From a virus, in IMG/VR virus record IMGVR_UViG_3300042090_002405, positions 17,288 to 81,287 of that record: DNA of 64,000 nucleotides. One strand, given 5' to 3'. The position numbers and the translations under genes were made by a program. The notes beneath the pieces are model-generated. The model was given only the letters and a program-made list of their open reading frames with translations, had not been told where the DNA came from and ran no database searches. This document shows positions 575-60,311 of this stretch, one piece after another; within the stretch, counting starts at the first letter, position 1; each line of letters starts with the position of its first letter.

Positions 575-765
575 CAGTCGAGAAACCGCGGGCAGTTTCC
601 ACACGTGCACACCCCCCACCCGTCGGTATGGACCGCACGGGGGCACCCGCATCGCACCCTCGAACAGGTGTCGGCGTCGGTAGTGGCATCCCCGTCCTCA
701 TCGTCGATGAAGATCAGCTCATCGTCGAGATCGTCGGCACCGTCAACATCGTCAACCGTAGTCAT
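574..765 (-). CDS. Small acidic Cys-rich (Zn-binding) protein
   Basis: CxxxxCxC...H...CxCxxC; stop overlaps the UDG start (TGATG). Confidence 0.6.
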   Translation of the reverse strand: MTTVDDVDGADDLDDELIFIDDEDGDATTDADTCSRVRCGCPRAVHTDGWGVCTCGNCPRFLD

Positions 766-40266: not shown

Positions 40267-41877
40267 TCAGTTGGCCAGATTGCAGAGACTACCGCCGCCC
40301 TCGACCCATAGGCACCCCAGCGTGGCGCCCAAGTTGGAGTCGGCGTTAGCGGCGCTCGCAGTGATGTTGCACGTAAGCGTGGGTGATGCGACAGTAGGTA
40401 CCCCCAGACATGCTTTGGTCTGACCGTTTAGGGTGATCCCGCCAGTCTCTAGAAACGTTGCGGCGGCCTCGCCAGCTCCGGACGGGTAAGTCACGTGGCC
40501 GTTCGATGTAACGCCTAGGGTCCCTGTGCCCCAAAGGAACGGCCCCAGAGTGGGAAACGAGTCGGAGCTGTTGAGGTTCAGCGAACCGTTTACGGTGAGG
40601 GTCGATCCGTCCAAGTACGCGGTGCCGAGGATCCCGCCGCTGACGTTGATGAGATTCCCGTGGCCCTGCGCGAAAATCACGTCGTTCGTAAATTGTCCAT
40701 AGTTTGGCGTGATGTTGTACGAGTTCCCGGTGCCAAAAAAGCCCGCTGAATAACAAGTGCCAGACGCCTGTAGGCCTGTGACAATAGACGTATTCGAAAG
40801 AGGGCCGCCATACGACGGCAAGACGCCGCCGAGGATTGCCGAGTTGATGAATCCATTTCCTACGAGAGGGCCGGCGTTGGGCGTTGCCACGTAGACCGGA
40901 TAGTTGCTCGTACTCTCGACGAATTCGGTAGCGGCACCGATAGTAATCCCGGCGAAAACATTCGTCGTCGTCGGCGTACGCACGCCGATGTTGTAAAGAA
41001 CGAGACCGTTCGCGAAGGTTGATGTGCTCTCGCCTTGCACTACGGCTCCGGCTGTGGCGATGTTGATTTGCGGCGTCGAGTTGATCGTGACGGTGTCCCC
41101 CGTCGTCCATACGTCTTGCTCTTGCGGATTCTCGCAGTTCTTGAGCTCCGGCGGGGATATTGAGATTGCGCTTGCCGTCTGGCTCATCAGCCACGTCGTG
41201 CCAGACACTAGCTTGTAGAGCCATCCTCTAGAGGCATGCGTTGAGTTGATGACGAGTAGCCCAGGTGAAAGAGAGCCCGCATCGGCACCAGCAAAGGTCA
41301 CCTCGAGAAGCTGCGGCGTAGATCGGTTCTTTGCGGCCACGACCGTGATGGTGGTCGTCTGCACCGTAGTAAGGGCCCCTTCGAGAAGAACGCTTGCACC
41401 CGATTCGAGGAAGTACGGCCCCACGTACCATACGTCAGAGTCGCTCGTGTTCGAACTCATCGCCTTGATCGTCGTGTTCTGCCGGATGCGCGGGCTCATC
41501 GTGCCCCATCGCGCAACGATCTGCGTATACGAAAGGCAGGGGCCGTCGGCGATCCCGGGAATCCCCGACGTGCACGTCGACTGTCCGCACGTGACATTAC
41601 CGTCGCTCGCGCATCCGGAGGTATTGCTGGGATCGACGTACCATGCCGCCTGGCTCCAAGAGCTCGGGCACGTAGGTGCCCCGCCATCACCGGGAGCTGT
41701 CGAGCACAGAGGGGGAAAAACAACAGGGGGCGGCAGAGCGTTTGCCGCACCGAACGTCTGGCCATTCGCGCCGGCCGCAGGGGCAGTTTCGATGGCGGTA
41801 CGTTGGCCGTAGATGCTCACCACCAAGGCGAAGACAGCGCACCCCAGAACGAAAAACGAAAACTTCTTCGACATCAT
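40267..41877 (-). CDS. Membrane-anchored beta-helix-like surface/spike protein
   Basis: N-terminal TM; WYVDPSN..ASDGN...PCLSY motif typical of beta-helix spike N-termini. Confidence 0.7.
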   Translation of the reverse strand: MMSKKFSFFVLGCAVFALVVSIYGQRTAIETAPAAGANGQTFGAANALPPPVVFPPLCSTAPGDGGAPTCPSSWSQAAWYVDPSNTSGCASDGNVTCGQSTCTSGIPGIADGPCLSYTQIVARWGTMSPRIRQNTTIKAMSSNTSDSDVWYVGPYFLESGASVLLEGALTTVQTTTITVVAAKNRSTPQLLEVTFAGADAGSLSPGLLVINSTHASRGWLYKLVSGTTWLMSQTASAISISPPELKNCENPQEQDVWTTGDTVTINSTPQINIATAGAVVQGESTSTFANGLVLYNIGVRTPTTTNVFAGITIGAATEFVESTSNYPVYVATPNAGPLVGNGFINSAILGGVLPSYGGPLSNTSIVTGLQASGTCYSAGFFGTGNSYNITPNYGQFTNDVIFAQGHGNLINVSGGILGTAYLDGSTLTVNGSLNLNSSDSFPTLGPFLWGTGTLGVTSNGHVTYPSGAGEAAATFLETGGITLNGQTKACLGVPTVASPTLTCNITASAANADSNLGATLGCLWVEGGGSLCNLAN

Positions 41878-44330
41878 TGCAGTACCCACGCTGTGCCTGT
41901 GTAGTAGAGGGTCGCGCCCCCACCGGCGGGGATAGACGCGAGAGCGCCGGTGCCGGCATCGAGGACGGTCAACGTGTTTCCGGAGTCATCGGTCCGCGTG
42001 ATCCGTAGTGTCTGCGCAGCAGGCCCGGAGTCGAGAAGCGTGATTGTCGTGTTCACCGCAAGGGACTTGACGGTGTACCAGTTGCCGCCTTGCGTGTAGC
42101 CGGCGGTCGCGCCCGCACCGGTGATCGACAAAGACACCGCACCGCCCGCGGGATTGTTGATTGCTGCGCCTGGGACAGGCCCTGCGAGGTAGCCGCCCAC
42201 TACAACCACGACAACGTTGGCCGAGTAGCTCCCGCCTTGAGCGATAAAGGTGAGCCACGATTGGCCGTCGAATGTGGCGACGGTGCCCGGCGCTCCTGAC
42301 AGCGCAGTCGCCTCTTCGAAACGCGTTCGATAGAACGTGAACTGCGTCGCGACGAGGCTAGGCGAGTCGATCTGGCAATCGTCGTAGGTCTGCGTCGTGG
42401 TCGTCGTGATCGCGACGGTGTCCAAAACAGAGCATCCCGAGACGGCCTGGACGCTCCCACATGACAAGTTGGTCGAGACCCAATTCACGTCATTGGAGAG
42501 TCCTAGCTTCCACGTGGGTGACGCGCCGGACGTGACGACGAGCTGGGTGTCGTTGTTCTCCACGAGGAGCGCAGAGAAGTTCGTTGCGCCGGAAACGTTC
42601 AAGGTGCTGTTGAGAAGCTCGCCGTCCTTGAGGAGGAGAGCGCTTTGGCACGAGCCCGGACCGTCAGTGACGGTCATCGCCATCTCGTTGATGGCCAGTG
42701 CTTCAAAAACGAGGAGCGCTTGCGAGGGGATAAACGCCGTGACGCCGTTGGCCCAATTGACCGTCAAGCCGGTCATCATCACGGGCCCCGTGAATGTCGG
42801 AGCCGCGGGGAAATTGGTCGAAGTGATCTGGATCGATCGACATGGAGGAATCGTCCACGTTTGTGGATCTGGGTCCCACACGTCCGCCGCGGTAGGGGCT
42901 ATCGATCCGACCTCGAACGTGGCCGCATCGTCAGCACTCGTCGGATCCCCTAGCGTCGCAAGCCACGCTTCGGGACTAGAGTACGGGGCGCTCTCGGTGC
43001 CGTTCTGAAAAGCCGCCGGCACGAGGGTATTGCCGTCGATCCAACGAAATCGCGCAAGAGGGACCGCGCCGCCGCCATCCGAAGACTGCCCAAAGATCTG
43101 AAGAACCCAATGGCCGCTTTCAAAATATACTACGACGCTCCCAGGCCCCGTCAGGGTGATAATCGTACCGCTGCCAGCATCTAGGATTTGGAGCTCAGCG
43201 CCCTCCGTATTGTCGGTGCGCGTAAAGCAGATCGTGTCTCCTGGATCGGCGGTGTCCGCCACCGTGATGGTGGTAACGCCCTCCGCAAGGGTTGGGATGG
43301 TGTACCAGTTGCCGCCCTGTTCGTATCCCGACGAAGCACCGGTGCCGATGATCGAAACGGTCACCGATTCCGTAATATTCGCGCCGGGTACTTGCCCCGC
43401 GAGAAAGCCGCCCGTGACAGCGACGATCGTAGAGCCGTACGTGCAATCCGCGTCTTGAAACGCCTTCCACGAGATGCCGTCGAACTCCGCGGTGGGCGCG
43501 GAGAGTACGCACGCTTGTGACCAACTCGTCTGGTTGAAAAAGCACTGCGCCCCCGCCGTTAGACCGGGCGCGCCGATAGACGCTCTCGTGTAGTTCTGGT
43601 TGCCGCTCGTCGTGATCGTACCGCTGTCAGAGACGATCGAATCCTCTGCCTGCAACCCCGCGCAGGTTAGGTTCGTAGAGCTCCATTGACTCCCCTCTTG
43701 AAGCGTGAGCGACCACGTCGGAGTAGCGCTGGACGTTACTTGCAGCTGCGCTTGGGTGCCGCTGATGTCGAGAATCTCGAAAAGAGCCGCTCCTGTCACG
43801 TCGAGCGTGCCTTGCAGGTTGCTGCTACCGAAGATCAACGCAGATGGGGCGGATCCAGCCGCGTCCGTGATCGTCATCGTGAGGCCGGAAATGTTGGCGT
43901 TCTCGACGATGAACGTGGCGATCGTGGGCACGAACGCCGCCGGGGCGTTGTTCCAATTGATTGTCAGTGGTGCGAACGACGGCGCCACCATGTTGAACGC
44001 CATGAGGATGACGTTTCGGCTACTGGGTACAGTCCACGTTTGCGGATTCGGACTCCACGCATCCGCTGCAGCCGGGGAGATGACGCCTAGCTCGGCTGTC
44101 GATGCGTCGTCGGTGCTCGTCGGTGCGCCCAGCGTGTTGAGCCATGCCTCGGGGCTTTGGTACGGCGTCCCGGGTGCGCCGTTCTGCATCGCAGGCGCGA
44201 CGGTCGTGTACGCGTCGATCCATCGTAGCCGCTTCAGCGGAACGTCCGAGAAGGGACCGGAGCCGCCCATGCCCAGCGACCTCTCGTAGGTGAGAGGCGA
44301 TCGATTCTTGATGCCGAGAATAGAGCCCAT
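41874..44330 (-). CDS. Spike protein made of two tandem ~390-aa copies
   Basis: VPLxRxRWID..QNG...PYxSPEAWLxTLGxPTS occurs twice; N-terminal GIKNRSPLTY. Confidence 0.8.
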   Translation of the reverse strand: MGSILGIKNRSPLTYERSLGMGGSGPFSDVPLKRLRWIDAYTTVAPAMQNGAPGTPYQSPEAWLNTLGAPTSTDDASTAELGVISPAAADAWSPNPQTWTVPSSRNVILMAFNMVAPSFAPLTINWNNAPAAFVPTIATFIVENANISGLTMTITDAAGSAPSALIFGSSNLQGTLDVTGAALFEILDISGTQAQLQVTSSATPTWSLTLQEGSQWSSTNLTCAGLQAEDSIVSDSGTITTSGNQNYTRASIGAPGLTAGAQCFFNQTSWSQACVLSAPTAEFDGISWKAFQDADCTYGSTIVAVTGGFLAGQVPGANITESVTVSIIGTGASSGYEQGGNWYTIPTLAEGVTTITVADTADPGDTICFTRTDNTEGAELQILDAGSGTIITLTGPGSVVVYFESGHWVLQIFGQSSDGGGAVPLARFRWIDGNTLVPAAFQNGTESAPYSSPEAWLATLGDPTSADDAATFEVGSIAPTAADVWDPDPQTWTIPPCRSIQITSTNFPAAPTFTGPVMMTGLTVNWANGVTAFIPSQALLVFEALAINEMAMTVTDGPGSCQSALLLKDGELLNSTLNVSGATNFSALLVENNDTQLVVTSGASPTWKLGLSNDVNWVSTNLSCGSVQAVSGCSVLDTVAITTTTTQTYDDCQIDSPSLVATQFTFYRTRFEEATALSGAPGTVATFDGQSWLTFIAQGGSYSANVVVVVVGGYLAGPVPGAAINNPAGGAVSLSITGAGATAGYTQGGNWYTVKSLAVNTTITLLDSGPAAQTLRITRTDDSGNTLTVLDAGTGALASIPAGGGATLYYTGTAWVLQ

Positions 44331-44357: not shown

Positions 44358-44861
44358 TCAGACGCTCACGACTTCGACGGTAAGGCGCGCCGACGGCGAA
44401 ACGGAAGGCGGTTTACCCAAAACCGTCGCGCTCGTCGCTCCGTCCTGACAAATCGCGTCGAGTTGCACCGTGTAACTACCTGTCGAGGTCACCGGCACTT
44501 CGAAGACACGCGTGACGGTCTGGCTCGGCATGATAATCGTCGAGTTTTCAACACCGTCCTGAATAACCGGAGGTCCGGGGGGTTGAGATATGAATATGCC
44601 CGTGAAGATCGTCCCATTTCCAGCGATGGAGGTGTAATTGACCGTCGCATGGACGATGATCTTCTGCCCTGCGGCCGCAAGGATCCCAGTGATCGTCACG
44701 AGGGGCGTATCGACGGAGTCGCTAACCGTGATCGTGTCCGCCCCGTTGTCCCCGTAGTACGTCGCGACGAGTCCCGGCGGTACCGCCATCCCCGAGCCCA
44801 CGGCGGGAGATTGCTCATAGGTGCTCGGGGAGCGATTTTTGGTGCCTGTCAGGTAGCCCAT
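44358..44861 (-). CDS. Short fibre/vertex protein with a C1q/BclA-CTD-like beta domain
   Basis: N-terminal GTKNRSPSTY followed by a beta-sandwich pattern. Confidence 0.7.
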   Translation of the reverse strand: MGYLTGTKNRSPSTYEQSPAVGSGMAVPPGLVATYYGDNGADTITVSDSVDTPLVTITGILAAAGQKIIVHATVNYTSIAGNGTIFTGIFISQPPGPPVIQDGVENSTIIMPSQTVTRVFEVPVTSTGSYTVQLDAICQDGATSATVLGKPPSVSPSARLTVEVVSV

Positions 44862-44992
44862 CGAAGATCCTTTTTCTTTCTTGCCGTGATCCACTGCACG
44901 AAGCCGTGTCGTGGCAGATCACGGTTTGAGAGTCAGGATCTCGACGTCGTCACGTTTTGCTTGCTGCCGATCGACTTTTGAAAAACTCGCGT

Positions 44993-45946: not shown

Positions 45947-46492
45947 TCACCTTCTCCTTCCGCCGCCGCCGCCGCCCGAGAAGACAGCGCCCATCGCCAA
46001 AAACGCAGCGACACCCACGCCACCCAGAACGAGCGTGCTCTTCTTGAGAAACCACGGCGAGGGCTCCTCGATCGGTGCCGCTGGTGCCGCCTGTGCCGTC
46101 GCGACTGGCGCCGCAGAGGGCCCGTCCGCGGCCGTACCGCTGTCAGCCGGATGCGCCTTCGATTGCGTGTACTCGTGCTTTGAGCTGCGCTTCGCCGTTA
46201 CGATTCCGCCGCCGCAATTGCTCTGCCCATGCCCCGCCCACCACGATGGTCGCGGATGGCAACCTGCCGGGGCACCCGGGGATACAGCTTGCGCGGCCTT
46301 TGCCGTGGACGCGCCGTACTTTCCATCGGGCGTGAGCCCCGCGGCCGTCTGGAAGTTGCACACGAGCTGCACGTTCGCGAGGTCGCACGGATCTACCTGT
46401 GCGAGTGTCATGGCGAACGCTTGCGATGAGCCCGTGTCGTCGCCGATCCCGACGGCGCGGACCGCGCGCCCGTTGTACCGAAGAGAGAACAT
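45947..46492 (-). CDS. Peptidoglycan-binding, C-terminally anchored virion membrane protein
   Basis: FQTAAGLTPDGKYGAST (PGBD); C-terminal TM followed by RRR. Confidence 0.7.
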   Translation of the reverse strand: MFSLRYNGRAVRAVGIGDDTGSSQAFAMTLAQVDPCDLANVQLVCNFQTAAGLTPDGKYGASTAKAAQAVSPGAPAGCHPRPSWWAGHGQSNCGGGIVTAKRSSKHEYTQSKAHPADSGTAADGPSAAPVATAQAAPAAPIEEPSPWFLKKSTLVLGGVGVAAFLAMGAVFSGGGGGGRRR

Positions 46493-47361
46493 CAGCGCCA
46501 AGCCTTCGCAATAGTCGCAGGTAATGCGGGTGCCGCCGAGGGCGCGGCTCGATGTCCGTGCGATCTCGATCCGCCCTTCTTTCGGGCCATGTGAACGACA
46601 CCCGCAACGAGTGCAACTCCGGCCAGCCCGATCCCCACCTTGGCCGGCGTGCTGAGATTGCGGAACTTGTCGAGCGCCGACGAAGCGGACGGTGGCACCG
46701 GGGAGGGAGCCGCTGCTGCCGTCGTGGGAGCAGCCGGCGGCGCCGGTGTTGCCGCTGCCGATGCATCGGGCGGGACGGGCGAGTCGGACGCCGGCGCCGC
46801 GCCGCTGGGAAACTGCGTCCCGAAATCGCTCGGGTGTGCCTGCGTCGTTGCGACCAAGGCCTGGACGGTGTTCGGATCGAGGTTGCCGTCCGTGGGAAGG
46901 GTTCCCCCCGAGTTCGCGTTGTACCAGCCTTGAAAGCAGGAGACCGCCGCTTGCAGATTTGTCCCCGGATCTTGCCAGCTAGGACAAGTTGTCCCCGTCG
47001 CCGCGCCGATGAGGGTGTTCAGCGACGTCAGCGTAGCGACGACCCATGCTTGTTGGTCGCTCGTCAGCGCGGGCGCGTCGGCGAGAGAAAAGCCACGCAC
47101 GCATCCGCCGCCGTACCAAACCGGCTCTTCCCCGCCGCACCCCCGCCCGCCGTACTCCGCGGGCCCTCCGGACCACCTCGCCGGGTTTCTGGCCCAGCGC
47201 GGGATCGGTCCGTAGCAGTCGACGCACGACGGCTTCCGTACGGGAAGGACGTTGCGCGACCACCAACAGTCAGCCGCGCGGATCCCCTCGTCTGTAGGCC
47301 CCTGGATAGGATAGTCCCGCACGAAATCATATCGGCCGGACGCTTGCGCGGGGGTAGTCAC
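46492..47361 (-). CDS. PGBD-like, C-terminally anchored virion membrane protein
   Basis: FQGWYN...LPTDGNLDPNT; Pro/Ala linker; TM plus basic tail. Confidence 0.65.
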   Translation of the reverse strand: MTTPAQASGRYDFVRDYPIQGPTDEGIRAADCWWSRNVLPVRKPSCVDCYGPIPRWARNPARWSGGPAEYGGRGCGGEEPVWYGGGCVRGFSLADAPALTSDQQAWVVATLTSLNTLIGAATGTTCPSWQDPGTNLQAAVSCFQGWYNANSGGTLPTDGNLDPNTVQALVATTQAHPSDFGTQFPSGAAPASDSPVPPDASAAATPAPPAAPTTAAAAPSPVPPSASSALDKFRNLSTPAKVGIGLAGVALVAGVVHMARKKGGSRSHGHRAAPSAAPALPATIAKAWR

Positions 47362-47620: not shown

Positions 47621-48586
47621 CTAGGGGATGGTCCTCGGGTTGATGCCGGCGAAGCCGACGAGATTGTCTTGAGGAAGGTTCTCGTCGAAGGCCATGGCCC
47701 CATAGATCGAGCCGTACTGGGCGAAGTCGCTATACGCGACGAGGAATTTGTCTTCTTCCGATAGCGCGGCGAACTGCTGAAGTTGAAGAGGTGTGGCGTT
47801 CAGAAACGAGGGGTTCGTCGTCGGATCGTTCTGCCTGACGCTGGCGAAAAAAACGACGTCGCACGGCACCGGAATAGGGATATCGAGCAACCGCTCGGAC
47901 TGATCTGTTCGCCCGCGATACCGGAGATCGTGGATGTTGCCGAGCGAAGCCGCCATCGGTACGCCCCAAGGCCTTCCCCCGTTGGGCGGCGTGTACGCGG
48001 TCGGCGCGAAGGGCGGACCCGCGAAGGTCTCGTAGAGGAGAGCCGGCGAAAGGGCGTCCTCGTAAATCAGCCCGTCGGTGTTTGCAGGATTGCGGGTGTC
48101 CCTGCGGGACCGATTGATCACCATAACGTGCCAGGAGATGTTGCCGCCGGGCGGGTGCCACAGCGGGTTTTTGATCTCCTTGCGAAACGTGACGGTACTC
48201 CCGACGGGCGGACCCGGAGGGGGCGGAGGAGGCAACTCACTGTTCGGCGTGAGGGGATCTGTCCCCGACGGGAGCCGCGCAACCATCTCGACGTACTGCC
48301 GAATTCCGACGAGCCGCACGCCGACCTCGGCGGATCCGAACGTCGCACGGGCGAGGATGAAGAGATACCGGCCCCCGAGCGCCGCCGTTGGGGTCGAAGG
48401 GACAACGAGCCCCGTGTACGCGTTCGTCTGGTACGGATCACTTCCGATGAAGCCAAATTCGGGGTTGGGCCCCGCCGTGATGAGCTCGTAACGACCACGC
48501 GCGAGCGGCTGACGGATCCCTTCGCCGACCCCGCCGGGCCAAGTGCGGAGTTCGAGGATCTTGTCGCTACGGGCGTGAGAGGACAT
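47621..48586 (-). CDS. Putative minor capsid/penton protein
   Basis: Beta-rich (LVGIRQYV, LDIPIPVPCDVVFFASVRQ), downstream of the capsid pair. Confidence 0.45.
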   Translation of the reverse strand: MSSHARSDKILELRTWPGGVGEGIRQPLARGRYELITAGPNPEFGFIGSDPYQTNAYTGLVVPSTPTAALGGRYLFILARATFGSAEVGVRLVGIRQYVEMVARLPSGTDPLTPNSELPPPPPPGPPVGSTVTFRKEIKNPLWHPPGGNISWHVMVINRSRRDTRNPANTDGLIYEDALSPALLYETFAGPPFAPTAYTPPNGGRPWGVPMAASLGNIHDLRYRGRTDQSERLLDIPIPVPCDVVFFASVRQNDPTTNPSFLNATPLQLQQFAALSEEDKFLVAYSDFAQYGSIYGAMAFDENLPQDNLVGFAGINPRTIP

Positions 48587-49797
48587 TACGCCGGCTTCTT
48601 TCCGCGTGCGAGCAGGCGGCACAGGTGCGTGGTCGACACACCGACCTGCTCGGCGATCACGCGCAGACTCGATCCTGCGTCACGCATTGCGTGCGCGCGA
48701 TCGAGCACCTCTGACGATACGGCCGATTGTCGCGTGCGCCGAACAACACGATCGAGAAGGTTGAAGCGAAGAAGGTTCACGGGGCGCGCGGCGGATTCGC
48801 GGGCTTCCTTCGAACGTCGTAGGGCCTCTTTTATCTTCAGACCCTTGGCGCGACTGCGCTCGGCGAGTGCTTCGGGCGACAGCTTCGCCTTAGCTGCAAG
48901 CGCGCCCTCTTTTGTCCTGCGCACGCGTTCGACACGTGCTTCCGGCGTCATGGCGGCCCATCCCTTTTTCGTAGCCGCGCTGTATTCCTCTGACGATTTT
49001 GTCAGTACCTTTTTCCCACCTGTGCTGCCGTATAGCTCTCTGCGGATGGCCCATGTCTTCTGAGCCGCCTCTCTACGCTGCTCCGTCGTCTGACTCTCAC
49101 GCATACGTTGTCTGGTTTCAGGGCCCAATGAGTCCAGCCGACTTTTTCGGGCCTTCTCGACTCTCTCCGTACGCGCTTCGGGCGTCATGCTTGACCATTG
49201 TTTGCGCACACGTTCGCTCTTCTGCTCAGGCGACATGCCGGACAATTGGTGCTTAACCCTGTTGCTCTTCTCGACAGAAGAGAACTGCGACCAAAACGCT
49301 TTTTGGCCCGCGGAGAAGGATGCGCCGGCCTCCTCTGATTTTAGCCATTTCAGATGACGAGACAGACGCTCGGGCGACCACGCATGAATGTTCTTCCGGA
49401 AGTATGCGACACGTTCTTCGGGAGTCATCGCCTGAATACGCCTCTTCGACATATCGCCGATTAGACGTTTGCTTTCTGCGTGGTGATGCCCGTTGCCCCC
49501 GCCTCCCGAGGAGAGATTGTACCCGTGCGGTGTGCGCGTTCGTCTCTGTTCAATCCATCGAGCTTCGGCGATGTCCACTCCCTCTTGAGTGGTTACGACG
49601 TCGAGTAACTCATGGACAAAGGCCGCCGCACCGTATTTGCGAATCGCGGCGCTCAGAAGACGAGCGCCGCCCTTGTTACGCTTGGCGGCGTTGACGTGTT
49701 CTTTCCAGCGACCTTCGACCGTATGCACAGTCTGTCCGACGTAGCGTTTTCCATTCACCGTATTGGTGTGGATATAGATATGGAATCTGGGCCTCAT
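48586..49797 (-). CDS. GIY-YIG homing endonuclease with NUMOD-like repeats and a C-terminal HTH
   Basis: HIYIHTNTVNGKRYVGQT..RWKEH..AIRKYG..E..GYNL; MTPEAR repeats; SLRVIAEQVGVSTTHL. Confidence 0.9.
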   Translation of the reverse strand: MRPRFHIYIHTNTVNGKRYVGQTVHTVEGRWKEHVNAAKRNKGGARLLSAAIRKYGAAAFVHELLDVVTTQEGVDIAEARWIEQRRTRTPHGYNLSSGGGGNGHHHAESKRLIGDMSKRRIQAMTPEERVAYFRKNIHAWSPERLSRHLKWLKSEEAGASFSAGQKAFWSQFSSVEKSNRVKHQLSGMSPEQKSERVRKQWSSMTPEARTERVEKARKSRLDSLGPETRQRMRESQTTEQRREAAQKTWAIRRELYGSTGGKKVLTKSSEEYSAATKKGWAAMTPEARVERVRRTKEGALAAKAKLSPEALAERSRAKGLKIKEALRRSKEARESAARPVNLLRFNLLDRVVRRTRQSAVSSEVLDRAHAMRDAGSSLRVIAEQVGVSTTHLCRLLARGKKPA

Positions 49798-50396
49798 TGC
49801 GCGATCATCAGAACTGAAAGATCTGGAGACTCAATCCCAAGTTTGCGCAAACGGCATCGACATTCCGCATCACTGAGATCGGAGACGCTCTTGTCCAACA
49901 ACTGTTGGCCCAAAAATGTGAGCGTTACATTGAACGGTACGCTCACCGGAGTTTGTGTGAGAATAGCGCTCACCTTAACATTAGATTGCTTCAATAGAGG
50001 CCAGCCATTCGGCCACGCCAATGCGATTACATCGAACAGATTACCCAAATCTGTAAAGTCATCGTTTATCGAATATTTAGGGCCGCCATATACATCCAAC
50101 TGAATCCCAACGCCAGTTTGACCCGATTGCTTCAACTGGTTGAAGTACAGCGATTGAAACGGCGACCCGGGAAACGAGTTCTGCTGAAACAGGTTGTACG
50201 ATACACGCTGAATCAGCGTGTCCTGCGTCAGGTTATTGTCGAACGATCCGACAATCGGTGGTGCGTTGACAACCGACGAGGAGAACTGGATCGGGACGTC
50301 GACCACGAACGGGACGATCGGAACGCCGACGACCAACCCGTAAGCTAGTTTAGGAGCCCACAAGGCGAGCTCACGAATATTTGGCTTCGGTTCCAT
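49794..50396 (-). CDS. Putative small single-jelly-roll major capsid protein
   Basis: 200 aa, all-beta pattern, WPLLKQSNVKVSA...VTLTFLG C-terminus; follows the larger capsid candidate. Confidence 0.55.
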   Translation of the reverse strand: MEPKPNIRELALWAPKLAYGLVVGVPIVPFVVDVPIQFSSSVVNAPPIVGSFDNNLTQDTLIQRVSYNLFQQNSFPGSPFQSLYFNQLKQSGQTGVGIQLDVYGGPKYSINDDFTDLGNLFDVIALAWPNGWPLLKQSNVKVSAILTQTPVSVPFNVTLTFLGQQLLDKSVSDLSDAECRCRLRKLGIESPDLSVLMIAQ

Positions 50397-50425
50397 CGTC
50401 AGGTTCTCCTCAAGCGCACTCTACC

Positions 50426-50468
50426 AAAATGAAAACGGGCGACGCAGCGTTTTCCGCCACGCCGCCCG
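50426..50468 (-). terminator. Intrinsic terminator after the large capsid candidate
   Basis: CGGGCGGCGTGGCG-GAAAA-CGCTGCGTCGCCCG then TTTTCATTTT. Confidence 0.75.
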
Positions 50469-50501
50469 GCTCAACTCCTGAACGTTCGGATCGGTTTTCG
50501 A

Positions 50502-51851
50502 TCAGCCGGCCGACTGAGGCGCCATGATCGTCGGCAGGTTGGTCTGGCAGTACGCCTTCCACCCGCCGGGCATCTCCCAGCCCTTCAGCTTGATCGCGAG
50601 CTTCAGCACACCGCCCTTGAAGACCTCGCGGCAGGTGTTGACGTCCTGCCGAACGAGACCGGGGACGGTATCGAGCGTTTGCTCGAGCATCTGGTTCTGA
50701 ATTCCGGCAGTGAGCGGGGACGTCGGCACCGAGTTGGAGCTAGAGGCCGAAATCCCCGTGTTGCACGTGAGGTTCACGTCCGCACTAATGTTCGTGCCGA
50801 GAGGCTCGTTTGTGATCGTGAGGGCCTCGAGCATGGATGCCTGGTGCACGGCGTCCTGCGCGACGAAGAGCATCCCGATGGGGATACCGCGCTCGAGGAA
50901 GCACGGGCTCTCCACGGGGCGATACATCTGCCCGCGGCACCCGTACCCCTGCCACCGGAGACCGCCCCAAGTGACCGGCGCGAGATCGTAGTCGCGGGTC
51001 GGGTGGAAGATGCCGACGTTCAGCACATTGGCAGGCGCCGTGGCGTTTCCGCTGTAGCCGACGCTGCCGACGCGGCGATGCGTGACCGGCAAGAAGATCG
51101 TGCCGGATCCCTTTGCGCGGTAGTTCGCGTTGACCTGCGCCACGTACTCGATCACGGGGACCTCGGACGTGCCGGACGCCATGGCGTCCGCGAACGAGCC
51201 GAAGTAGGAGACGTCCGCGGCGAGCTCGTTCAGCACGAGTTCCCTCTGCGACGTCTTCCATTGGAACTGGTAGGCGTTGATGAAGTTCCACCCCGCGCGC
51301 CACACTTCCGAGCCCCACGCGAGATCAGCCGGCGTGAGGACGGTCCCGGCAAACGTACCGACCGGGGGGATCCCCGTTCCGGTGTTGCCACCGAGGGCAC
51401 CGCCAATCTGATCATTGAGCGTGAAGACATCCGGCGAAGGGGGAGGCGTCGTCGTCGTGGCGGGTGCCGCGAAGGCGTTGCCGATCGTCGAGAAGCTCAT
51501 CGGCTCGCAGAACACGTGCACGCCTACGCCCTGCGTGAGGATGTCCGTCTGGAGAATGCCGTTGATCAGGAACGTGCTGTCGATGCTCTGGACGCCCGGG
51601 ACAGACGAAGAGCCCGACAACAGATTGACCGTGTCGCCGAAGGTCGCGGTTGCTTCCTCGATCGTGAGCGGCAAGGGGATCGTCCACACGACCTCCTCGA
51701 TCACGGGAATATTGCCGAAGGAGCAACGAAGGCACTTCTCCGCAGCGCCGAGAGTCCCGGGGGCTTCCCCGAGACCAAACGGCACGCGGCGCACCTTCTC
51801 GCGATCCTGACCCCACTTCGCGGACTTTTTACCGATAATGGAACGTGACAT
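50502..51851 (-). CDS. Putative large jelly-roll major capsid protein
   Basis: STFLINGILQTDILTQGVGVHV, YRPVESPCFLERGIPIGMLF, LKLAIKLKGWE; strongly GC3-biased codons and its own terminator. Confidence 0.55.
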   Translation of the reverse strand: MSRSIIGKKSAKWGQDREKVRRVPFGLGEAPGTLGAAEKCLRCSFGNIPVIEEVVWTIPLPLTIEEATATFGDTVNLLSGSSSVPGVQSIDSTFLINGILQTDILTQGVGVHVFCEPMSFSTIGNAFAAPATTTTPPPSPDVFTLNDQIGGALGGNTGTGIPPVGTFAGTVLTPADLAWGSEVWRAGWNFINAYQFQWKTSQRELVLNELAADVSYFGSFADAMASGTSEVPVIEYVAQVNANYRAKGSGTIFLPVTHRRVGSVGYSGNATAPANVLNVGIFHPTRDYDLAPVTWGGLRWQGYGCRGQMYRPVESPCFLERGIPIGMLFVAQDAVHQASMLEALTITNEPLGTNISADVNLTCNTGISASSSNSVPTSPLTAGIQNQMLEQTLDTVPGLVRQDVNTCREVFKGGVLKLAIKLKGWEMPGGWKAYCQTNLPTIMAPQSAG

Positions 51852-51953: not shown

Positions 51954-54059
51954 TCAAGAGAGGACGAGAGAGTCCTTTTCCTCGTCGCCGATGAAGCCGA
52001 GGAAGCTGTTGTTTTCGCCGACGCAACCGCAGCCTTCACCGCCCGCGGAGTTCATGGGGACGGGGCCAGGGCCTGGTGTTGCGGGAGGGCCGGGTGAATA
52101 GGTCGGCGGCCCGACTGGATTTGCCGGAGGCGGGGCGGTCGGGAGTGCTCCGTCGCCTGCTGCCGGCGGTGCAGCGGAAGCATCGGCCGGCGGGGGCTCC
52201 CCTCCACCGCCACCATCAGCCGGCGCATCGCTAACGCCACCCTGGATGGGGGGTGCGGGAGGCGCAACCGGAGAAGCGGGGGACTCGTAGAGGTACGGGT
52301 AGTGCCCATACGGATGGGCAAGACACCACGCGTGGAGCTGCGCATCCGTGTACGTCGGGTACAGACCCTTCGCGCGCGCCATGCAGTGGTGATGGTGGTG
52401 CTTGTGGTGTGGCGCCGTACCGGGCGCACTCGGGATGGCGTAAGGAGTGTTGAATCCAGCGCGCGACCAACGGTTGCTCAAGTTCGCGAAGTGCGCGACC
52501 CCGCCGGGCCTGTACATCGGATGGGAGAACTGAAACCGCGACGCTCCGGGAGGGGCAGGACGGCGGACATAACCGAGTCCGGCTTCATGACGGAGGGCCT
52601 GAGCAGCAGACGGGTAATTCTCGTTGTCGCTCACCCCGGCTTGTCGCCGAAAAACCTGAACCGCATCGGGGTAGGGCGAATCACCACCGAGGGCTAGAGG
52701 GCCGACATCGCCAATCGGAGCGGACGAAAGGGCCCCGAAAGACTGTCCACTCGCGGACGTTGTGGCGGAATCGAGATTCAGCTTCGCGGCCACTTCCGAG
52801 GGATACAGACGCGCGATGACGCTTCCCTGCAAAGCAGAGGTATCTTTCGGCGCGAGCATCGGGACAACCACGTTCGTCCAAAGCGTCGTGAACGCCTTCA
52901 CCCCCGCGCCAAGAGCCACGGCTTCAAGAGAAGCCTTCAGGTAATGGTTCTTGACATGCCCCGATGCAATCGCGGGAACGACGATCGCACCAGCCAGCGC
53001 GAGAGCGCGGTGCAGATGCGGGGGCGATGCGACGTTGAGGGCGTTGGCCATGGTACCAGCGCCGTCGGACGTGAACTTGTTCGTGGGCTTCTCGTCTCCC
53101 GCGGGGTTATAGGTTGCAAGATACCGATCGAGCGCATCGGACAACGAGTAACCAATGCCGATCGACACGGCCGAGATGGCGAGTCTTCCGACTGACTTGA
53201 CCGCTCCGCCGATGCCGGCGCGTGCGTAGTGACGGCGCGTCGCACGAACGCGACGAGCGGGCGTCCGAACAGCGTGCACCCGGCGACGACGCGACCGCAC
53301 CCGACGGCTCGGGGCCTGCACCAAGATCTCACGTACGCGCGTGCGCGTCCGCGTACGAACCTTGTTCGCGCTCGCCCTACGGTGTCGGCGACGTGCGCGG
53401 ACCACCGAAGTAGCCGCATGCACCCGACGACGCCGACGCGCCATCACCCGACGCGGAGCAGCAGCTCGAACCCGCGCACGAACCCGACGCCGCCGACGCG
53501 CTACCGGAGCGGCGGCGCGCACCCTGCGTCGTGCTCGCGCCCGAACAACCGTGGACGCACGCACCTTGCGCGCCGCACGGGCTTTCCGGTGACGCTTGCG
53601 CGCACGCACGACCGGCGTAGCTGCGTGCACTCGACGACGACGGGTGGAGCGGACCTTCTTCGAGCTGCGAGCGCGATGCTTGACGACCATGTGATCCTCT
53701 TCTCGTGCGATGACGGCCTGAATTCCTCGGCCAAACAGGATGGTCCGGAAGGTTTTTAGGCCCCTTGGAGAGAACTGCCGGAGGCGAATGTGCTGATCGG
53801 TCGTGTGCACCTTGCCGTGGTGGTAGCCGTGAGCTTTCGCCCAGGCCTTTGCGGCGGAAGGTGTCCACTGTTGTCGGTCGAACAGGAGCGACTGAACGTC
53901 CGCGCGCGGATGTGACGCGGGGGCCGCACGGGTGACACGACGGCGGAACGCGCCGGCAGCGACCCGACGGGACGCAGCACGACTACGGCGTGCAGAGACG
54001 CCACGCTCTTCTTGCGTTTCCTCTTCATACCGAGCGAGCCGGTCGTCATAGAGACCCAT
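51954..54059 (-). CDS. Arg-rich DNA-condensing core-like protein with TM segments and a Pro-rich tail
   Basis: About 155 aa of RRV[RH]A repeats; N-terminal VQSLLFD..W...AKAWAKAHGY...IRLRQF.P domain. Confidence 0.7.
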   Translation of the reverse strand: MGLYDDRLARYEEETQEERGVSARRSRAASRRVAAGAFRRRVTRAAPASHPRADVQSLLFDRQQWTPSAAKAWAKAHGYHHGKVHTTDQHIRLRQFSPRGLKTFRTILFGRGIQAVIAREEDHMVVKHRARSSKKVRSTRRRRVHAATPVVRARKRHRKARAARKVRASTVVRARARRRVRAAAPVARRRRRVRARVRAAAPRRVMARRRRRVHAATSVVRARRRHRRASANKVRTRTRTRVREILVQAPSRRVRSRRRRVHAVRTPARRVRATRRHYARAGIGGAVKSVGRLAISAVSIGIGYSLSDALDRYLATYNPAGDEKPTNKFTSDGAGTMANALNVASPPHLHRALALAGAIVVPAIASGHVKNHYLKASLEAVALGAGVKAFTTLWTNVVVPMLAPKDTSALQGSVIARLYPSEVAAKLNLDSATTSASGQSFGALSSAPIGDVGPLALGGDSPYPDAVQVFRRQAGVSDNENYPSAAQALRHEAGLGYVRRPAPPGASRFQFSHPMYRPGGVAHFANLSNRWSRAGFNTPYAIPSAPGTAPHHKHHHHHCMARAKGLYPTYTDAQLHAWCLAHPYGHYPYLYESPASPVAPPAPPIQGGVSDAPADGGGGGEPPPADASAAPPAAGDGALPTAPPPANPVGPPTYSPGPPATPGPGPVPMNSAGGEGCGCVGENNSFLGFIGDEEKDSLVLS

Positions 54060-54329
54060 GCCACGACTCGACTAAGGTTTTCGGGGCGTCTTTGTCGCGT
54101 CAATCCTTATGTTTTCGGGCGGTCCGTGCGCGGTGCACGCGGAGTGATTAGGGTACGCGCCTGGCGTGCGCCGTCAGCCGGTAAGCTGTCGGGGAAAGCC
54201 GCGGATCCAAACCGTATAGTTCGTATGGGTCGGCTGTTAATGCGCCGCACGCAGACGGGCGGCAGACGATCGTCGGAATCGTTCCGTGTAGTCCGCCTCT
54301 TTCGAGAGAATTGTATTCCGGTTGTATTA

Positions 54330-54992
54330 CTACCGGATTCCGGGATACCGCAGACCCGGCGCGCTCATCGGGCTACCTGACACGCCGACATCCTTTTCGC
54401 TCATCCCGACGAAGTCACCGACGCCTTTTTCTTTGGCGTCTTTGCCGGGCTCCAGCCACCACTCGCGAAGATGCTGCGCGGTCTGACCCACGGGGTGATT
54501 TGTAGTGCCGTCCGTGCGCACCCAGTTGTCGAGCTCGTCCTGGAAGGCACAGAACACATGCGTGGGAACGTCGGCCGGTTCCTTGTGACTGCTCCCAATA
54601 ATCATCGCGGGGATCCCGATACTCATGTATGCCGCCGCAAGTAGTACGCTGTACTCGTCACAATCAATGCCCTTTATGCAAAGGCCTTTTTCTTTGTCGA
54701 GACACAGAATTTGATCGGGCGTTGCGATGAACTCCCCCATGAGAGGGTCGGCGACGTAGAAAGTTTGATTCCTCGCCGCATCCAAGATCGCTGTCACCTT
54801 TTGACGACGTCCTCCCTTCGCGGCGCCGGCCTTGTCGATCACCTGTGTCGTCCATGCACGAAGCCGGGGGGACATCCGCGCCTTCCATGCGCGATCGGCC
54901 GTCTCTTGAAGCGAGATCTTCGCGCCTCGTGCGCCGGCAGGATGAGACCTCGCATCAGTCTGGATCCCCTCGAGAGGTTTCTCTTGAATCAC
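54330..54992 (-). CDS. Transglutaminase-fold cysteine protease
   Basis: IDCDEYSVLLAA...IGIP (Cys), THVF (His), WVRTDGT (Asp). Confidence 0.8.
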   Translation of the reverse strand: MIQEKPLEGIQTDARSHPAGARGAKISLQETADRAWKARMSPRLRAWTTQVIDKAGAAKGGRRQKVTAILDAARNQTFYVADPLMGEFIATPDQILCLDKEKGLCIKGIDCDEYSVLLAAAYMSIGIPAMIIGSSHKEPADVPTHVFCAFQDELDNWVRTDGTTNHPVGQTAQHLREWWLEPGKDAKEKGVGDFVGMSEKDVGVSGSPMSAPGLRYPGIR

Positions 54993-55681
54993 GGATGATT
55001 CCCTTTCGTGGGCGTGGGGGGTTGCAGTGATCCGTACATCGCTTGAAGGGCAAGACGCGCGGAGTAGAGCGCGCTCTCAAGCGCATCTTGAATCTCGGCC
55101 CGCATCCCCGCAAAGTGCTCGGGCGATCGAAGTGCGAGATCAGCGGATAGTGCTTGCGCGCCCTTGATTGCCCAATCGGCGACATCTTTCGCGTACTGCG
55201 CATGCCACCCCGCATCGGCGTTCTCTGAAGAAAAGGCGGGGGACGCGGCCGCGATGATCTCCGCCGCCGTACGCGGAGCACACGACAAGAACTCCACGCC
55301 GTCCCTCTCGTCGAGGTCGCGCACTTGTTCGGCCGCGTCGTCGAGCGCTCGAAAGTGCGAGAGGATGACAGGTGCCATTTCCCCGAACGGGCTCGGCGTC
55401 ACGCCGTCCGCGTAAGGCAAGCTCGCGAAGTACGCCGGGGGGTAGAGGTTGTCGTCAGCGAACGCCGGATCGAACCATTTCTCAGGGAGGAAGAGCTCTT
55501 CGCCGACGCGGAGGTCGCGAAAGGTCACGAAGCCGTTGCGGTGCGCGACAGTATCCTTGTGGCCGTTGGCCCGGGTCAGATCGAACGAGGCGCACTTGGG
55601 GCAGCCGGCGTGCTCCTCCATCGCCGCGATCGATGCCGGAGTGTCCCCATCTCGAACTACGTACGTCCTCCGCATCCGCAT
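54989..55681 (-). CDS. LysM-domain protein
   Basis: TYVVRDGDTPASIA...LTRAN...LRVGEELFLP. Confidence 0.75.
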   Translation of the reverse strand: MRMRRTYVVRDGDTPASIAAMEEHAGCPKCASFDLTRANGHKDTVAHRNGFVTFRDLRVGEELFLPEKWFDPAFADDNLYPPAYFASLPYADGVTPSPFGEMAPVILSHFRALDDAAEQVRDLDERDGVEFLSCAPRTAAEIIAAASPAFSSENADAGWHAQYAKDVADWAIKGAQALSADLALRSPEHFAGMRAEIQDALESALYSARLALQAMYGSLQPPTPTKGNHP

Positions 55682-55693
55682 TCTTCGGGAAGA

Positions 55694-55809
55694 CTACGCG
55701 CACGCATGGCCCCCGTCTACGTCGTGGGCGCCATCGAGGCCGGCGTCGCCGATGTTGAAGTTGAAGGATGCTCGGTGTAATGGCGCGGGTGATTGATCGG
55801 ATCGCTCAT
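55694..55809 (-). pseudogene. DUF3310-family remnant with internal deletions
   Basis: MSDPINHPRHYTEHPS, then FNFNIGDAGL in another frame. Confidence 0.6.
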
Positions 55810-56031
55810 CTTTTTCCCCCGTCTACGCCGTACCGAAAAGCTGCACGATCGACCCTGTCTCACCGAGCGGCTGTTTGCACCGCGCGCACCGCGTTCCGTC
55901 TGGCGGGGCTGAGTACCCGAGCATCTCGTCCCCTGCTGCAAACAGGCGTGGTGCACGCGGAGACGACGTGCGCGCTTGGCGTCCTTTTGACCGACGCGGA
56001 ATCTGTTTTCGGAGGAGCCCACGACGGACGA

Positions 56032-56229
56032 TTAGAGTGGCGCTACTTCGCGCGTTGGCGAGTACACCACCGGCCGTCCGTCCCCGTGCGCAAGCCGGAT
56101 CCCCTCCCCATCGATCGCCATCCTCACCAAAGGGGTCTTCAGGAGCTTGTCGAGCGTCTTCGCTACTGCTGCTGCGTCTCGATCGTCCCGTGCCTCGATA
56201 ATGACATGCATCAAAATCTTGTACTTCAC
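56032..56229 (-). CDS. Hypothetical protein
   Basis: GTGA overlap; MKYKILMHVIIEARDD. Confidence 0.6.
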   Translation of the reverse strand: MKYKILMHVIIEARDDRDAAAVAKTLDKLLKTPLVRMAIDGEGIRLAHGDGRPVVYSPTREVAPL

Positions 56230-57848
56230 CGGGGGCCCCCGGGCATCGGCATCGGCGGAGCGCCCCATGTGCGCGGGCTTTGCGGCGCGATCGGCTCCGG
56301 CATGTGTTCCGGCGCGGGCGGGGGTGGCAAAGAGTCTACAGGCACCGCCACAAATCCCGGCGGTGGCGTGTAGCCGGGGGTCACCTCGACGTAGCCCGGC
56401 GGGAGCGTTCGCTGCGGCCCGCGCCGCGCCTCGACGCGGTTCTGCAGCGCTTCTCGCTGCTCCGAAAACCATTTGAGGACGTTGCCCATGTTGGCCGTCA
56501 CGGTTTCGAACGCGCGCACAGACCCGTTCTCGCGGTCCATGACGATGGGCCACCCGTTACCAACGTCCACGACCTTAACGGGATTGCTGTCGTCCCCGTC
56601 GTCGCCGACGTTGTAGCGGCGTCGTGCGCCATCGTCCTCAGGCGGGGGGCGAAAGCGGTCCGCGATCCCCATCGCTGTATCGATCACCGAGGCGGCCTCG
56701 CGGAACTCCTCGACGGCTGACTTCTGCCGCATGGGGGGCCCTGGGGGCGGACCTCCGGACGGGCCGCCGTATGCGGCGGTGCGGTACGCACCGGGACCTG
56801 GCGGTGGCGGAGCAGCGGGAGCGCCGAGGGCCTGAAAAAGACGATCCGCCGGAACGAAACCGAACCCCGGAACGAAAAACATTCCGGGCGGCGCTTGGAT
56901 CGGCGGCATGCCCGGCAATGCTCCGGGCGGTCCCGCGTGCGGCGCGGGGGGCGGCGATGGAGCGGCGGGTTGCTGCATCCGCTGCATCGTTTGCATCATC
57001 CACGACATCATCGCTATCGGATCGGCGGACGATGGGGGCGGGGCTGGCGCAGCCGAAGGAGCAACCGGCTGCTGCTGTAGCTGCTGCATCTGACGATACA
57101 TGTCGAACGTCTGCTGCATCATCGCGATCGGATCCACAGATGGCGGGGCCGAGGAGGATGGTGCGGGTGACGGCGGTGGAGCACCTGGAGCCCCCCCGCG
57201 TGCCGCGTTTTGCATGTCGAGGAACATCCCGAACATGCGCTGCATGAGGGTCACGGGATCGCCCATTCCTCCGTTGGGCGGCGGTTGCATCGGCTGCTGC
57301 ATCATCGTTGGTCCCGTCGTCGGTTGTCCTTGGTCGCGCGTGTCCGTCAGGACGATCCGCCCCTTGCCGCGCTTCTGCTTATCGCTCGAGTCTACGAATT
57401 CGACCTCGTATCCGGCCTCTTCGTAGCGCCCGTGGTGCGTCATCAGCACGGTGTAGAGCTCTGCGCCCGATTTCGGACGGCTGCGGATCACCCACTGCAC
57501 CGGCGAGCCCGTCAAACGCTTGACCTTGATGTCGATCGTGTTGGCCGGCCAGAACTTCAGAAGCCCATCGTACTTCTCGAGAAGGTCTTCGATGTTGAAG
57601 GGCGCTCTCGCCTGGCCGGACCGCTTCTTGTTGACGAGATCTTCCATACGGCGGTTGTCGCGCACGCTCTCCGCGTCGACGGCGCCTAATTCTTTGATCT
57701 TGGACTCGTCGGCGACGAGAGCGCCTGGCTCTTCGCCTTCTGCGGACTCCTCGGGCACCGCGCCGATCTCGGCGACGATATCTGCCTCGTCTTGCTGCGC
57801 GGGGGTGTTCGAGGGCGGAGCTGCGCCGCCGCTGTTTCGACGTCCCAT
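56226..57848 (-). CDS. Pro/Gln/Met-rich low-complexity protein
   Basis: Three DP[VI]xxM[QM] helices separated by Pro linkers; RBS AGGAAAG. Confidence 0.75.
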   Translation of the reverse strand: MGRRNSGGAAPPSNTPAQQDEADIVAEIGAVPEESAEGEEPGALVADESKIKELGAVDAESVRDNRRMEDLVNKKRSGQARAPFNIEDLLEKYDGLLKFWPANTIDIKVKRLTGSPVQWVIRSRPKSGAELYTVLMTHHGRYEEAGYEVEFVDSSDKQKRGKGRIVLTDTRDQGQPTTGPTMMQQPMQPPPNGGMGDPVTLMQRMFGMFLDMQNAARGGAPGAPPPSPAPSSSAPPSVDPIAMMQQTFDMYRQMQQLQQQPVAPSAAPAPPPSSADPIAMMSWMMQTMQRMQQPAAPSPPPAPHAGPPGALPGMPPIQAPPGMFFVPGFGFVPADRLFQALGAPAAPPPPGPGAYRTAAYGGPSGGPPPGPPMRQKSAVEEFREAASVIDTAMGIADRFRPPPEDDGARRRYNVGDDGDDSNPVKVVDVGNGWPIVMDRENGSVRAFETVTANMGNVLKWFSEQREALQNRVEARRGPQRTLPPGYVEVTPGYTPPPGFVAVPVDSLPPPPAPEHMPEPIAPQSPRTWGAPPMPMPGGPR

Positions 57849-58387: not shown

Positions 58388-59023
58388 TCAGTCGAGTAGT
58401 CCCTCTTCCGCGAAAGAGAAAAACGATCGTTTATCTTCACTTCCCCCGACGATCAAATGATCAAGCAAGATCACATTGACCGCCTCGAACGCTTTTAGAA
58501 AGGCGTCCGTCGTTTCCTTGTCGGCTTCACTTGGTTCGGCTTCGACACCTGAAGGATGCACGTGCATGAGGATCACAGCGTGCGCACCGTCGATGAGTGC
58601 TGCTTGTAGCGTAGGGACCATCGGGGCCATGGTTGCCGTCGCCTCCCCTCGGCCTGTTTCCGCCACAGACTTCATTCGCAGATGTAGATCGAGTGTGATG
58701 AGTCCGAAGACCTCATTTACCTCGTCGCCGATCGCATCCTCGATGAGCTCGAAGGCCTTCTCTGGAGTGTTCAGCGGTCCAATCTTGTCAGCGAGCGCGT
58801 TGCACGCCGCGAATCGCGCCGGGTCCTTATGTACAACGAGAAACGGCCGGCACTTCGAGTCGGGGCCCGCCGAAAGCACCACTGGCTCAACGTCGTCCGG
58901 CCGGTGCGGCGCGACCGTTTCGGCCACCCGGCGCGCCTGAGCGGGCTCATGACACCCGCACTCTGCACCAATGCGACGTCGCTTCTCGCCGACCGCGACG
59001 AGGTTGTAGGACTTCCGTTTCAT
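58388..59023 (-). CDS. radC: RadC-like JAB/MPN domain protein
   Basis: E.F.LITLD...AVILMHVHPSGVEAEPSEADKETT...LLDHLIVG..FFSFAEEG. Confidence 0.9.
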   Translation of the reverse strand: MKRKSYNLVAVGEKRRRIGAECGCHEPAQARRVAETVAPHRPDDVEPVVLSAGPDSKCRPFLVVHKDPARFAACNALADKIGPLNTPEKAFELIEDAIGDEVNEVFGLITLDLHLRMKSVAETGRGEATATMAPMVPTLQAALIDGAHAVILMHVHPSGVEAEPSEADKETTDAFLKAFEAVNVILLDHLIVGGSEDKRSFFSFAEEGLLD

Positions 59024-60071: not shown

Positions 60072-60311
60072 TCAGATCGTCTTTCCGTTGGGCTCCTTGA
60101 TCCTTAGGTAGCCCTCGCTCGTCTGGTGCCGATCCGCTGCCTGAAGCAAGATCGACCGCATCCATACGCTGATCTTCACGCCGCATTGCTGCGCGCGCTG
60201 ATCTACGTTCCGATATTGCTCCGGCGTCATCTTCAGCGTGACGACCTTAGTTTTCGCGGAGACAGCGGTGTGTGCCATCAGGAGGGAGGCCAATCGGATG
60301 GCCGTCGGCAT
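60072..60311 (-). CDS. RHH regulator
   Basis: KVVTLKMTPEQYRNVDQRAQQCGVKISVWMRSILL. Confidence 0.75.
   Translation of the reverse strand: MPTAIRLASLLMAHTAVSAKTKVVTLKMTPEQYRNVDQRAQQCGVKISVWMRSILLQAADRHQTSEGYLRIKEPNGKTI

Follow-up and report, generated by a model that had tools for sequence, protein, structure and literature searches.

Almost all known prokaryotic jelly-roll viruses encode an FtsK/HerA packaging ATPase, and the genomes of the Halopanivirales are 16 to 31 kb long. Prokaryotic double jelly-roll viruses have genomes of <20 kb (PMC8812541). In Sulfolobus polyhedral virus 1 (SPV1), single-jelly-roll hexamers and pentons form a T=43 shell with an inner membrane and a nucleoprotein coil, and there is no packaging ATPase (PMC8459092, PMC8812541). 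Here, we analyzed a 64,000-nt stretch of viral DNA (the window), which comprises bases 17288-81287 of the 81,287-bp IMG/VR virus record IMGVR_UViG_3300042090_002405 (CheckV completeness 98%), and focused on a trio of genes that encode proteins of 449, 200, and 321 amino acids (aa). These proteins most likely make up the shell of ~80-kb tailless bacterial viruses from wetlands and soils, a widespread and hitherto undescribed group. Coordinates are those of the window unless marked as belonging to the genome or to a relative (G001 or G002).

We assign a probability of roughly 60% to the reading that a tailless icosahedral double-stranded DNA (dsDNA) virus builds its shell mainly from the 449-aa protein, with the 200-aa jelly-roll protein co-assembling and with motorless assembly resembling that of SPV1. 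The 449-aa protein is our candidate for the major capsid protein (MCP) because its gene is the most conserved, the most codon biased, and separately terminated, because the protein is a predicted jelly-roll with a basic N-terminal arm, and because no HK97 system was found.

Predicted folds and conservation of the capsid candidates

We modeled the 449-aa protein with AlphaFold2 (AF2) from a 66-sequence alignment. The model (predicted local distance difference test [pLDDT] 83.4; predicted TM-score [pTM] 0.82) is all-beta apart from four helices, and its basic N terminus is disordered. Small one-domain sandwiches align over residues ~49 to ~425; therefore, the strand at residues 50-60 and the strand at residues 408-426 share one sandwich, and the model reads as a single jelly-roll base formed from both chain ends and carrying large insertions. 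A Foldseek search with this model returned nothing convincing, and rows for papillomavirus L1 and CRESS capsid proteins, at TM-scores of ~0.09, were not counted as matches. The 200-aa model (42 sequences; pLDDT 83.8, pTM 0.76) has eight strands and two loop helices, and its best Foldseek rows were SPV1 (probability 0.92) and HHIV-2 (probability 0.91), at E values of 2-5e-3. Viral jelly-roll capsid and penton proteins are frequent among the top structural neighbors of the 449-aa and 200-aa models. The neighbors include the MCPs of HHIV-2, HCIV-1, SH1, and P23-77, PRD1 P3, STIV B345 and A223, and the FLiP MCP; no HK97 chain was among the matches listed.

The initial annotation of this DNA had pointed to the adjacent 449-aa and 200-aa open reading frames (ORFs) as jelly-roll-like proteins, each ending in a hydrophobic motif. 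Both ORFs and both motifs are present, and AF2 indeed predicts jelly-rolls (pLDDT 83-84) in which the motifs occupy the last long beta-strand of each sandwich: LKLAIKLKGWE in E408-426 of the 449-aa model and VTLTFLGQQ in E155-166 of the 200-aa model. The third ORF was called at 47621-48622 (333 aa), and its homologues place the start at the ATG at 48586, confirming the 321-aa gene that the annotation had proposed.

Pfam and PHROGs contained no match for the 449-, 200-, and 333-aa ORFs, or for any of the 66 members of the 449-aa family. Searches of PDB sequences, by phmmer with the 449-aa protein and with profiles of the three families, gave noise except for a weak match of the 321-aa family profile to enterovirus VP1 (E = 0.045); the ESM Atlas model of the 321-aa protein was unusable (pLDDT 0.27). 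Paralogy within the trio was considered and is ruled out at the sequence level by hhalign probabilities of 0.1-0.6% (0.6% for 449 aa versus 200 aa). No match was obtained by tblastn of the three proteins against 50,697 GenBank phage records or of the 449-aa protein against 72,556 PLSDB plasmids, and full-text literature searches found no published description of this virus group.

Metagenomes hold at least 378 homologues of the 449-aa protein, the best 120 listed being 68-82% identical and lying on contigs of up to 160 kb; in an exhaustive search, the family comprised 168 clusters at 50% identity. For the 200-aa protein there were 521 homologues (best 120 of 521, 73-89% identical). Four relatives were fetched whole (77-86 kb), which gives five genomes with the source genome, together with 29 close and 8 distant IMG/VR loci. 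These 37 related viral contigs, all carrying the capsid-candidate module, are 4-128 kb long, and 30 of them exceed 35 kb (38-128 kb). In the four fetched genomes, the trio is the best conserved part of the genome: the 449-aa and 200-aa proteins are 68-73% identical and the 321-aa protein 57-62%, compared with 30-63% for other conserved genes. The order of the cysteine protease candidate, the Arg-rich membrane protein, and the 449-, 200-, and 321-aa proteins is unchanged in every locus that spans the module, and the order of the trio is held across the 37 loci, down to 25-42% identity. One locus with the module order intact has a GC content of 41%, and homologues of the 449-aa protein are as low as ~30% identical. 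Because replication genes are not common to all relatives, the family is defined by its capsid-candidate module. Overall, it has hundreds of metagenomic members, genomes of ~77-128 kb among the recovered contigs, variable replication modules, and no conserved packaging motor.

Codon usage also sets these genes apart. Among the conserved-module genes compared, the 449-aa gene has the highest GC content at third codon positions (GC3) in all 32 loci tabulated, and the 200-aa gene is usually second. Median GC3 is 0.89 for the 449-aa gene, 0.83 for the 200-aa gene, 0.79 for the 321-aa gene, and 0.73-0.76 for other module genes. A strong intrinsic terminator separates the 449-aa gene from the 200-aa gene; we infer that it attenuates read-through and that the 449-aa protein is therefore made in excess. 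A wetland metatranscriptome library contains contigs that match the 449-aa gene, the 200-aa gene, and their neighbors at ≥99% identity. One metatranscriptome contig (window 50478-50843), the deepest compared (8.1), ends ten bases before the stem at 50468, a contig end being no proof of an RNA 3' end.

Packaging enzymes, tailed-phage genes, and hosts

We scanned ~60 ORFs of the 81-kb genome and found no Pfam or PHROGs match to a terminase, portal, HK97 capsid, tube, sheath, or tape-measure protein; a portal or HK97 capsid was likewise not recognized among the ORFs scanned in the four whole relatives. Six-frame searches with the hidden Markov models (HMMs) Pox_A32, FtsK_SpoIIIE, Terminase_6N, and TerL_ATPase detected no packaging enzyme in the five genomes, and control genomes responded. 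The initial annotation had remarked on the lack of a recognizable terminase, portal, HK97 capsid, tail tube, and tape measure, which holds for the ORFs scanned. It had also named an HK97 fold or a terminase, portal, or tail module as contrary evidence and had proposed looking for an FtsK/HerA/A32-type ATPase versus a terminase; these checks came out negative for the ORFs scanned and for the two modeled proteins, both all-beta sandwiches. In its composition (rich in Gly, Ala, Thr, Pro, Ser, and Asn) and in its N-terminal membrane anchor, a 1477-aa ORF is unlike a tape measure. The sole tail-fiber PHROG match (28496-29890) is a collagen-like protein in which Gly-X-Y repeats carry the match.

No ORF of the conserved module contains a Walker A motif, and across the 37 loci there is no recurring Walker-A ORF ≤10 kb from the 449-aa gene. 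With the P23-77 ATPase, VP16, and VP17 as phmmer queries, no match at E ≤ 10 was found in the five genomes. A HerA/FtsK-superfamily ATPase of 650-690 aa (PF01935, 1e-6) is present in two of the five genomes (G001 53980-55941, G002 54928-56991), where it sits by an integrase and the gene for a 471-aa protein. Because it is confined to these two genomes, we rejected it as the packaging enzyme of the family; it may instead have an accessory transfer or partition function. Also rejected was a 648-aa ORF (14909-16855, GRCGKT), which is modular and has a Walker region that relatives do not conserve; searches with it in the PDB and ESM Atlas were uninformative. A 299-aa P-loop protein proved to be Sak4-like, and a weak Pox_A32 match in relative G004 is a replicative helicase rather than a packaging ATPase. 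The 471-aa protein (17354-18769) was rejected as an enzyme, being a Thr/Pro-rich protein with internal repeats (LxxGDxIQFxSQxGVFYTV...); three of the four whole relatives have it at ~45% identity, and an integrase lies close to its gene in the source genome, G002, and G004.

The only match in a cellular genome was to two short contigs binned in a Candidatus Binatia metagenome-assembled genome (MAG), and the myxobacterial host proposed in the initial annotation is not borne out. None of the 300 other genomes of that MAG's phylum matched (301 scanned). This DNA is present in wetland metagenomes of several studies.

Neighboring genes and a possible assembly route

Replication and recombination genes occupy the left 37 kb of the genome and include a family A polymerase, a superfamily 1 (SF1) helicase, Dam, a D5-type primase-helicase, SNF2, the Sak4-like protein, and two tyrosine integrases. 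A block of genes, mostly on the minus strand and almost none with a Pfam or PHROGs match, extends from ~22 to 64 kb. Searches for tRNA genes, and for exact terminal repeats in the 81,287-bp genome, found none. Two of the four whole relatives have terminal overlaps of 123 and 127 bp, as in circular assemblies, and the genome is probably circular. The earlier estimate of a genome over 64 kb agrees with its size of 81 kb, which far exceeds that of any described prokaryotic jelly-roll virus. The features discussed here are collected in Table 1.

Table 1. Capsid candidates and other features of the source genome (window coordinates unless marked)
Feature	Position	Strand	Remarks
449-aa large jelly-roll protein	50502..51851	-	Candidate major capsid protein; basic disordered N-terminal arm
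Intrinsic terminator	50436..50468	-	Between 449-aa and 200-aa genes; 14-bp stem with 11 G-C pairs, then T-run
200-aa single jelly-roll protein	49794..50396	-	Candidate penton (vertex) protein, or else a second capsid protein
GIY-YIG homing endonuclease	48586..49797	-	PF01541 3.6e-8; phrog_314 7e-26; between 200-aa and 321-aa genes
321-aa protein, third of trio	47621..48586	-	Directly after 200-aa gene in 37/37 loci
289-aa protein after trio	46492..47361	-	Matched in 29/29 close loci; transmembrane segment at residues 240-258, near C terminus
701-aa Arg-rich membrane protein	51954..54059	-	Candidate DNA-condensing core protein
220-aa transglutaminase-like Cys protease candidate	54330..54992	-	PF01841 E 0.0023, below curated cut-off
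540-aa Pro/Gln/Met-rich protein	56226..57848	-	Conserved in four fetched genomes
Fiber/spike protein	28496-29890	-	Collagen-like (phrog_6320 1e-16); N-terminal KN[KR]SPxTY tag
Fiber/spike protein	38583-40238	-	N-terminal KN[KR]SPxTY tag
Fiber/spike protein	41874..44330	-	N-terminal KN[KR]SPxTY tag
Fiber/spike protein	44358-44894	-	N-terminal KN[KR]SPxTY tag
Family A DNA polymerase, 1216 aa	genome 14289-17939 (reaches window 1-652)		N-terminal uracil-DNA glycosylase (UDG)-like domain; Hint/intein insertion with HNH endonuclease

Upstream of the 449-aa gene, in all four fetched genomes and 31 of the 37 related loci, lies the gene for the 701-aa protein, which contains a tract of RRRV-type Arg-rich repeats (~150 residues); hydrophobic segments come next, and the tail is rich in His and Pro. 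The cysteine protease candidate is kept in 32 of the 37 loci, all eight distant ones included, and an Asp-Cys pair at residues 110-111 is near-invariant. The 540-aa protein may be scaffold-like or internal. The homing endonuclease occupies the site between the 200-aa and 321-aa genes in just 5 of 29 related loci; it is therefore a mobile insertion and stands outside the capsid set. Beside it, the 200-aa gene has a GC3 of 0.59 here versus a median of 0.83 in relatives, a low value that could result from co-conversion of sequence flanking the endonuclease.

Four fiber/spike-like proteins, otherwise unrelated, have in common an N-terminal G-[IL]-KN-[KR]-SP-x-TY sequence followed by a Gly/Ser linker; by analogy with the adenovirus fiber tail motif, this peptide looks like a shared docking tag. 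A crude hydropathy scan flagged a hydrophobic segment in 16 of 63 ORFs, so the many small transmembrane proteins of the initial annotation hold up only roughly. A CDP-alcohol phosphatidyltransferase gene (61439-61873; PF01066, 1.8e-10), not conserved in the four fetched relatives, lies amid genes for tail-anchored peptidoglycan-binding proteins. The hydrophobic ORFs, the tail-anchored proteins, and the phosphatidyltransferase gene are indirect signs of a putative internal membrane.

In all five genomes, the conserved late module includes genes for a RadC-like JAB protein (58388-59023; PF04002, 4.6e-24) and a NikA-like ribbon-helix-helix (RHH) protein (60072-60311; PF21983, 3.8e-7), an unusual location for such plasmid-type genes. 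A MoxR-like AAA protein is encoded beside a DUF2201 metallopeptidase/VWA protein (genome 4664-7167), and the relatives do not share this pair.

These genes suggest a route by which particles might be built. The 449-aa protein would provide one jelly-roll base, with its first and last strands contributed by the two chain ends, and its large loop insertions would make up an outer domain. The 200-aa protein, a plain single jelly-roll, would co-assemble with the 449-aa shell, and the 321-aa protein would be a third shell or vertex component. We regard the 200-aa protein as most likely the five-fold vertex (penton) protein, because the 449-aa product would be in excess, penton-type proteins are among the structural neighbors, and four fibers carry one putative docking peptide; a role as second lattice protein is less likely. 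Interchangeable fibers would dock via their common N-terminal peptide, and one vertex protein could receive them. The probably circular genome would be condensed by the Arg-rich 701-aa protein, the shell, perhaps over a membrane, would close around the condensed core, and the transglutaminase-like protease would mature the particle; a virus-encoded packaging NTPase would play no part. The Arg-rich protein, the lack of a motor, and a genome that is probably circular together suggest that, as in SPV1, particles form around a condensed nucleoprotein core.

Alternative readings and comparison with known systems

Several points weigh against a 449-aa shell assembled without a motor. The virus is known from genes and from predicted folds of single chains, and a packaging enzyme could be host encoded or too divergent to detect. 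The metatranscriptome contigs are compatible with transcription of the 449-aa/200-aa region, and an RNA library may contain DNA. The STIV and PRD1 double jelly-roll MCPs align over 143-153 residues with the 449-aa model, which leaves room for a degenerate double jelly-roll. Finally, conservation of the 200-aa protein equals that of the 449-aa protein and its gene ranks second in GC3, so a second lattice protein would fit just as well as a penton; this equal conservation keeps a two-MCP model alive.

Such a model would hold for a member or sister of the Halopanivirales (P23-77, IN93, SH1, HHIV-2, HCIV-1, SNJ1), in which the 449-aa protein would be the large and the 200-aa protein the small vertical single-jelly-roll MCP, their hetero- and homodimers would build pseudo-hexameric capsomers, and the 321-aa protein would be the penton. 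These viruses are tailless, infect prokaryotes, and have adjacent jelly-roll capsid genes of unequal size, as appears to be the case here, and their large protein carries an extra outer domain; HHIV-2, HCIV-1, SH1, and P23-77 MCPs are among the structural neighbors, and both genes here have raised GC3 as well as equal conservation. Their gene order is small then large, however, and the genome described here is ~three to five times larger than their 16-31 kb. The kinship to Halopanivirales proposed in the initial annotation fails on two further counts: when the family profiles were compared with P23-77 VP16 and VP17 by hhalign, the probabilities were 0.15-0.5%, and no counterpart was found here to the packaging ATPase, a defining trait of Halopanivirales that P23-77 encodes near its MCP genes. 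We consider membership in this group unlikely.

It is also improbable that the virus is of the PRD1/adenovirus type (Bamfordvirae-like), with trimers of the 449-aa protein, a divergent double jelly-roll MCP in this reading, and with the 200-aa protein as a single-jelly-roll penton. Tectiviridae, Corticoviridae, Turriviridae, and FLiP are tailless and have the MCP gene beside a single-jelly-roll penton gene, an arrangement that this family would resemble, and the STIV and PRD1 alignments speak for this possibility. Their MCPs are double jelly-rolls, whereas the model of the 449-aa protein resembles a nested single jelly-roll, and the alignment of single-sandwich domains from ~49 to ~425 fits that arrangement better than two jelly-rolls in series. 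In addition, no A32/FtsK ATPase was found, and none of the 66 family members matched a Pfam double jelly-roll (DJR) capsid at E ≤ 0.01. Least probable is that the trio has some other structural or surface role in a very divergent tailed phage or a nonviral mobile element (for example, the 200-aa protein as a nucleoplasmin-like chaperone for the Arg-rich protein), given that HK97, portal, terminase, tube, and sheath genes were not seen in five genomes, nor a relaxase or type IV secretion ATPase among the ORFs scanned, that the 72,556 plasmids held no relative, that the tail-fiber match rests on Gly-X-Y repeats, and that such signals of conservation and expression are in keeping with a major virion protein.

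We favor a shell built mainly from the 449-aa protein and assembled without a motor. A bolder reading, less likely than not, is a lineage of bacterial viruses, widespread and with genomes 3-5x larger than those of known prokaryotic jelly-roll viruses, in which a protamine-like membrane protein would condense the genome before a jelly-roll shell encloses it, with no packaging NTPase. Such a lineage would be the bacterial counterpart to the SPV1 mode of assembly and would merit a rank no lower than a new family or order, and perhaps a higher one. If the jelly-roll shell is correct, the size range of tailless bacterial viruses would be extended several-fold, and there would be a bacterial example of motorless encapsidation of a large dsDNA genome. 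It would also explain abundant soil and wetland viruses that escape marker-based annotation.

Adenovirus offers an analogy only. As is proposed for this family, it encodes an Arg-rich DNA-condensing protein and a cysteine protease beside its capsid genes and has fibers with an N-terminal docking peptide, but its hosts are eukaryotic, its hexon is a double jelly-roll, its packaging ATPase is IVa2, and its protease has a different fold. The closest working analogue appears to be the archaeal Portogloboviridae (SPV1), rather than P23-77 or SH1. The likeness lies in the absent packaging ATPase, none having been found in the five genomes here; the fold match is weak. Portogloboviridae have archaeal (Sulfolobales) hosts and ~20-kb genomes, whereas the source genome is 81 kb long, comes from a wetland, and encodes peptidoglycan-binding domains. 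SPV1 itself has a hyperthermophilic archaeal host and a 20-kb genome that encodes no replication proteins. In contrast, the family described here comes from wetlands and soils, has genomes of 77-86 kb in the five compared, and carries peptidoglycan-binding and replication modules (PolA, D5-like, SNF2), and its candidate shell protein is 449 aa long with big insertions and its candidate core protein an Arg-rich membrane protein.

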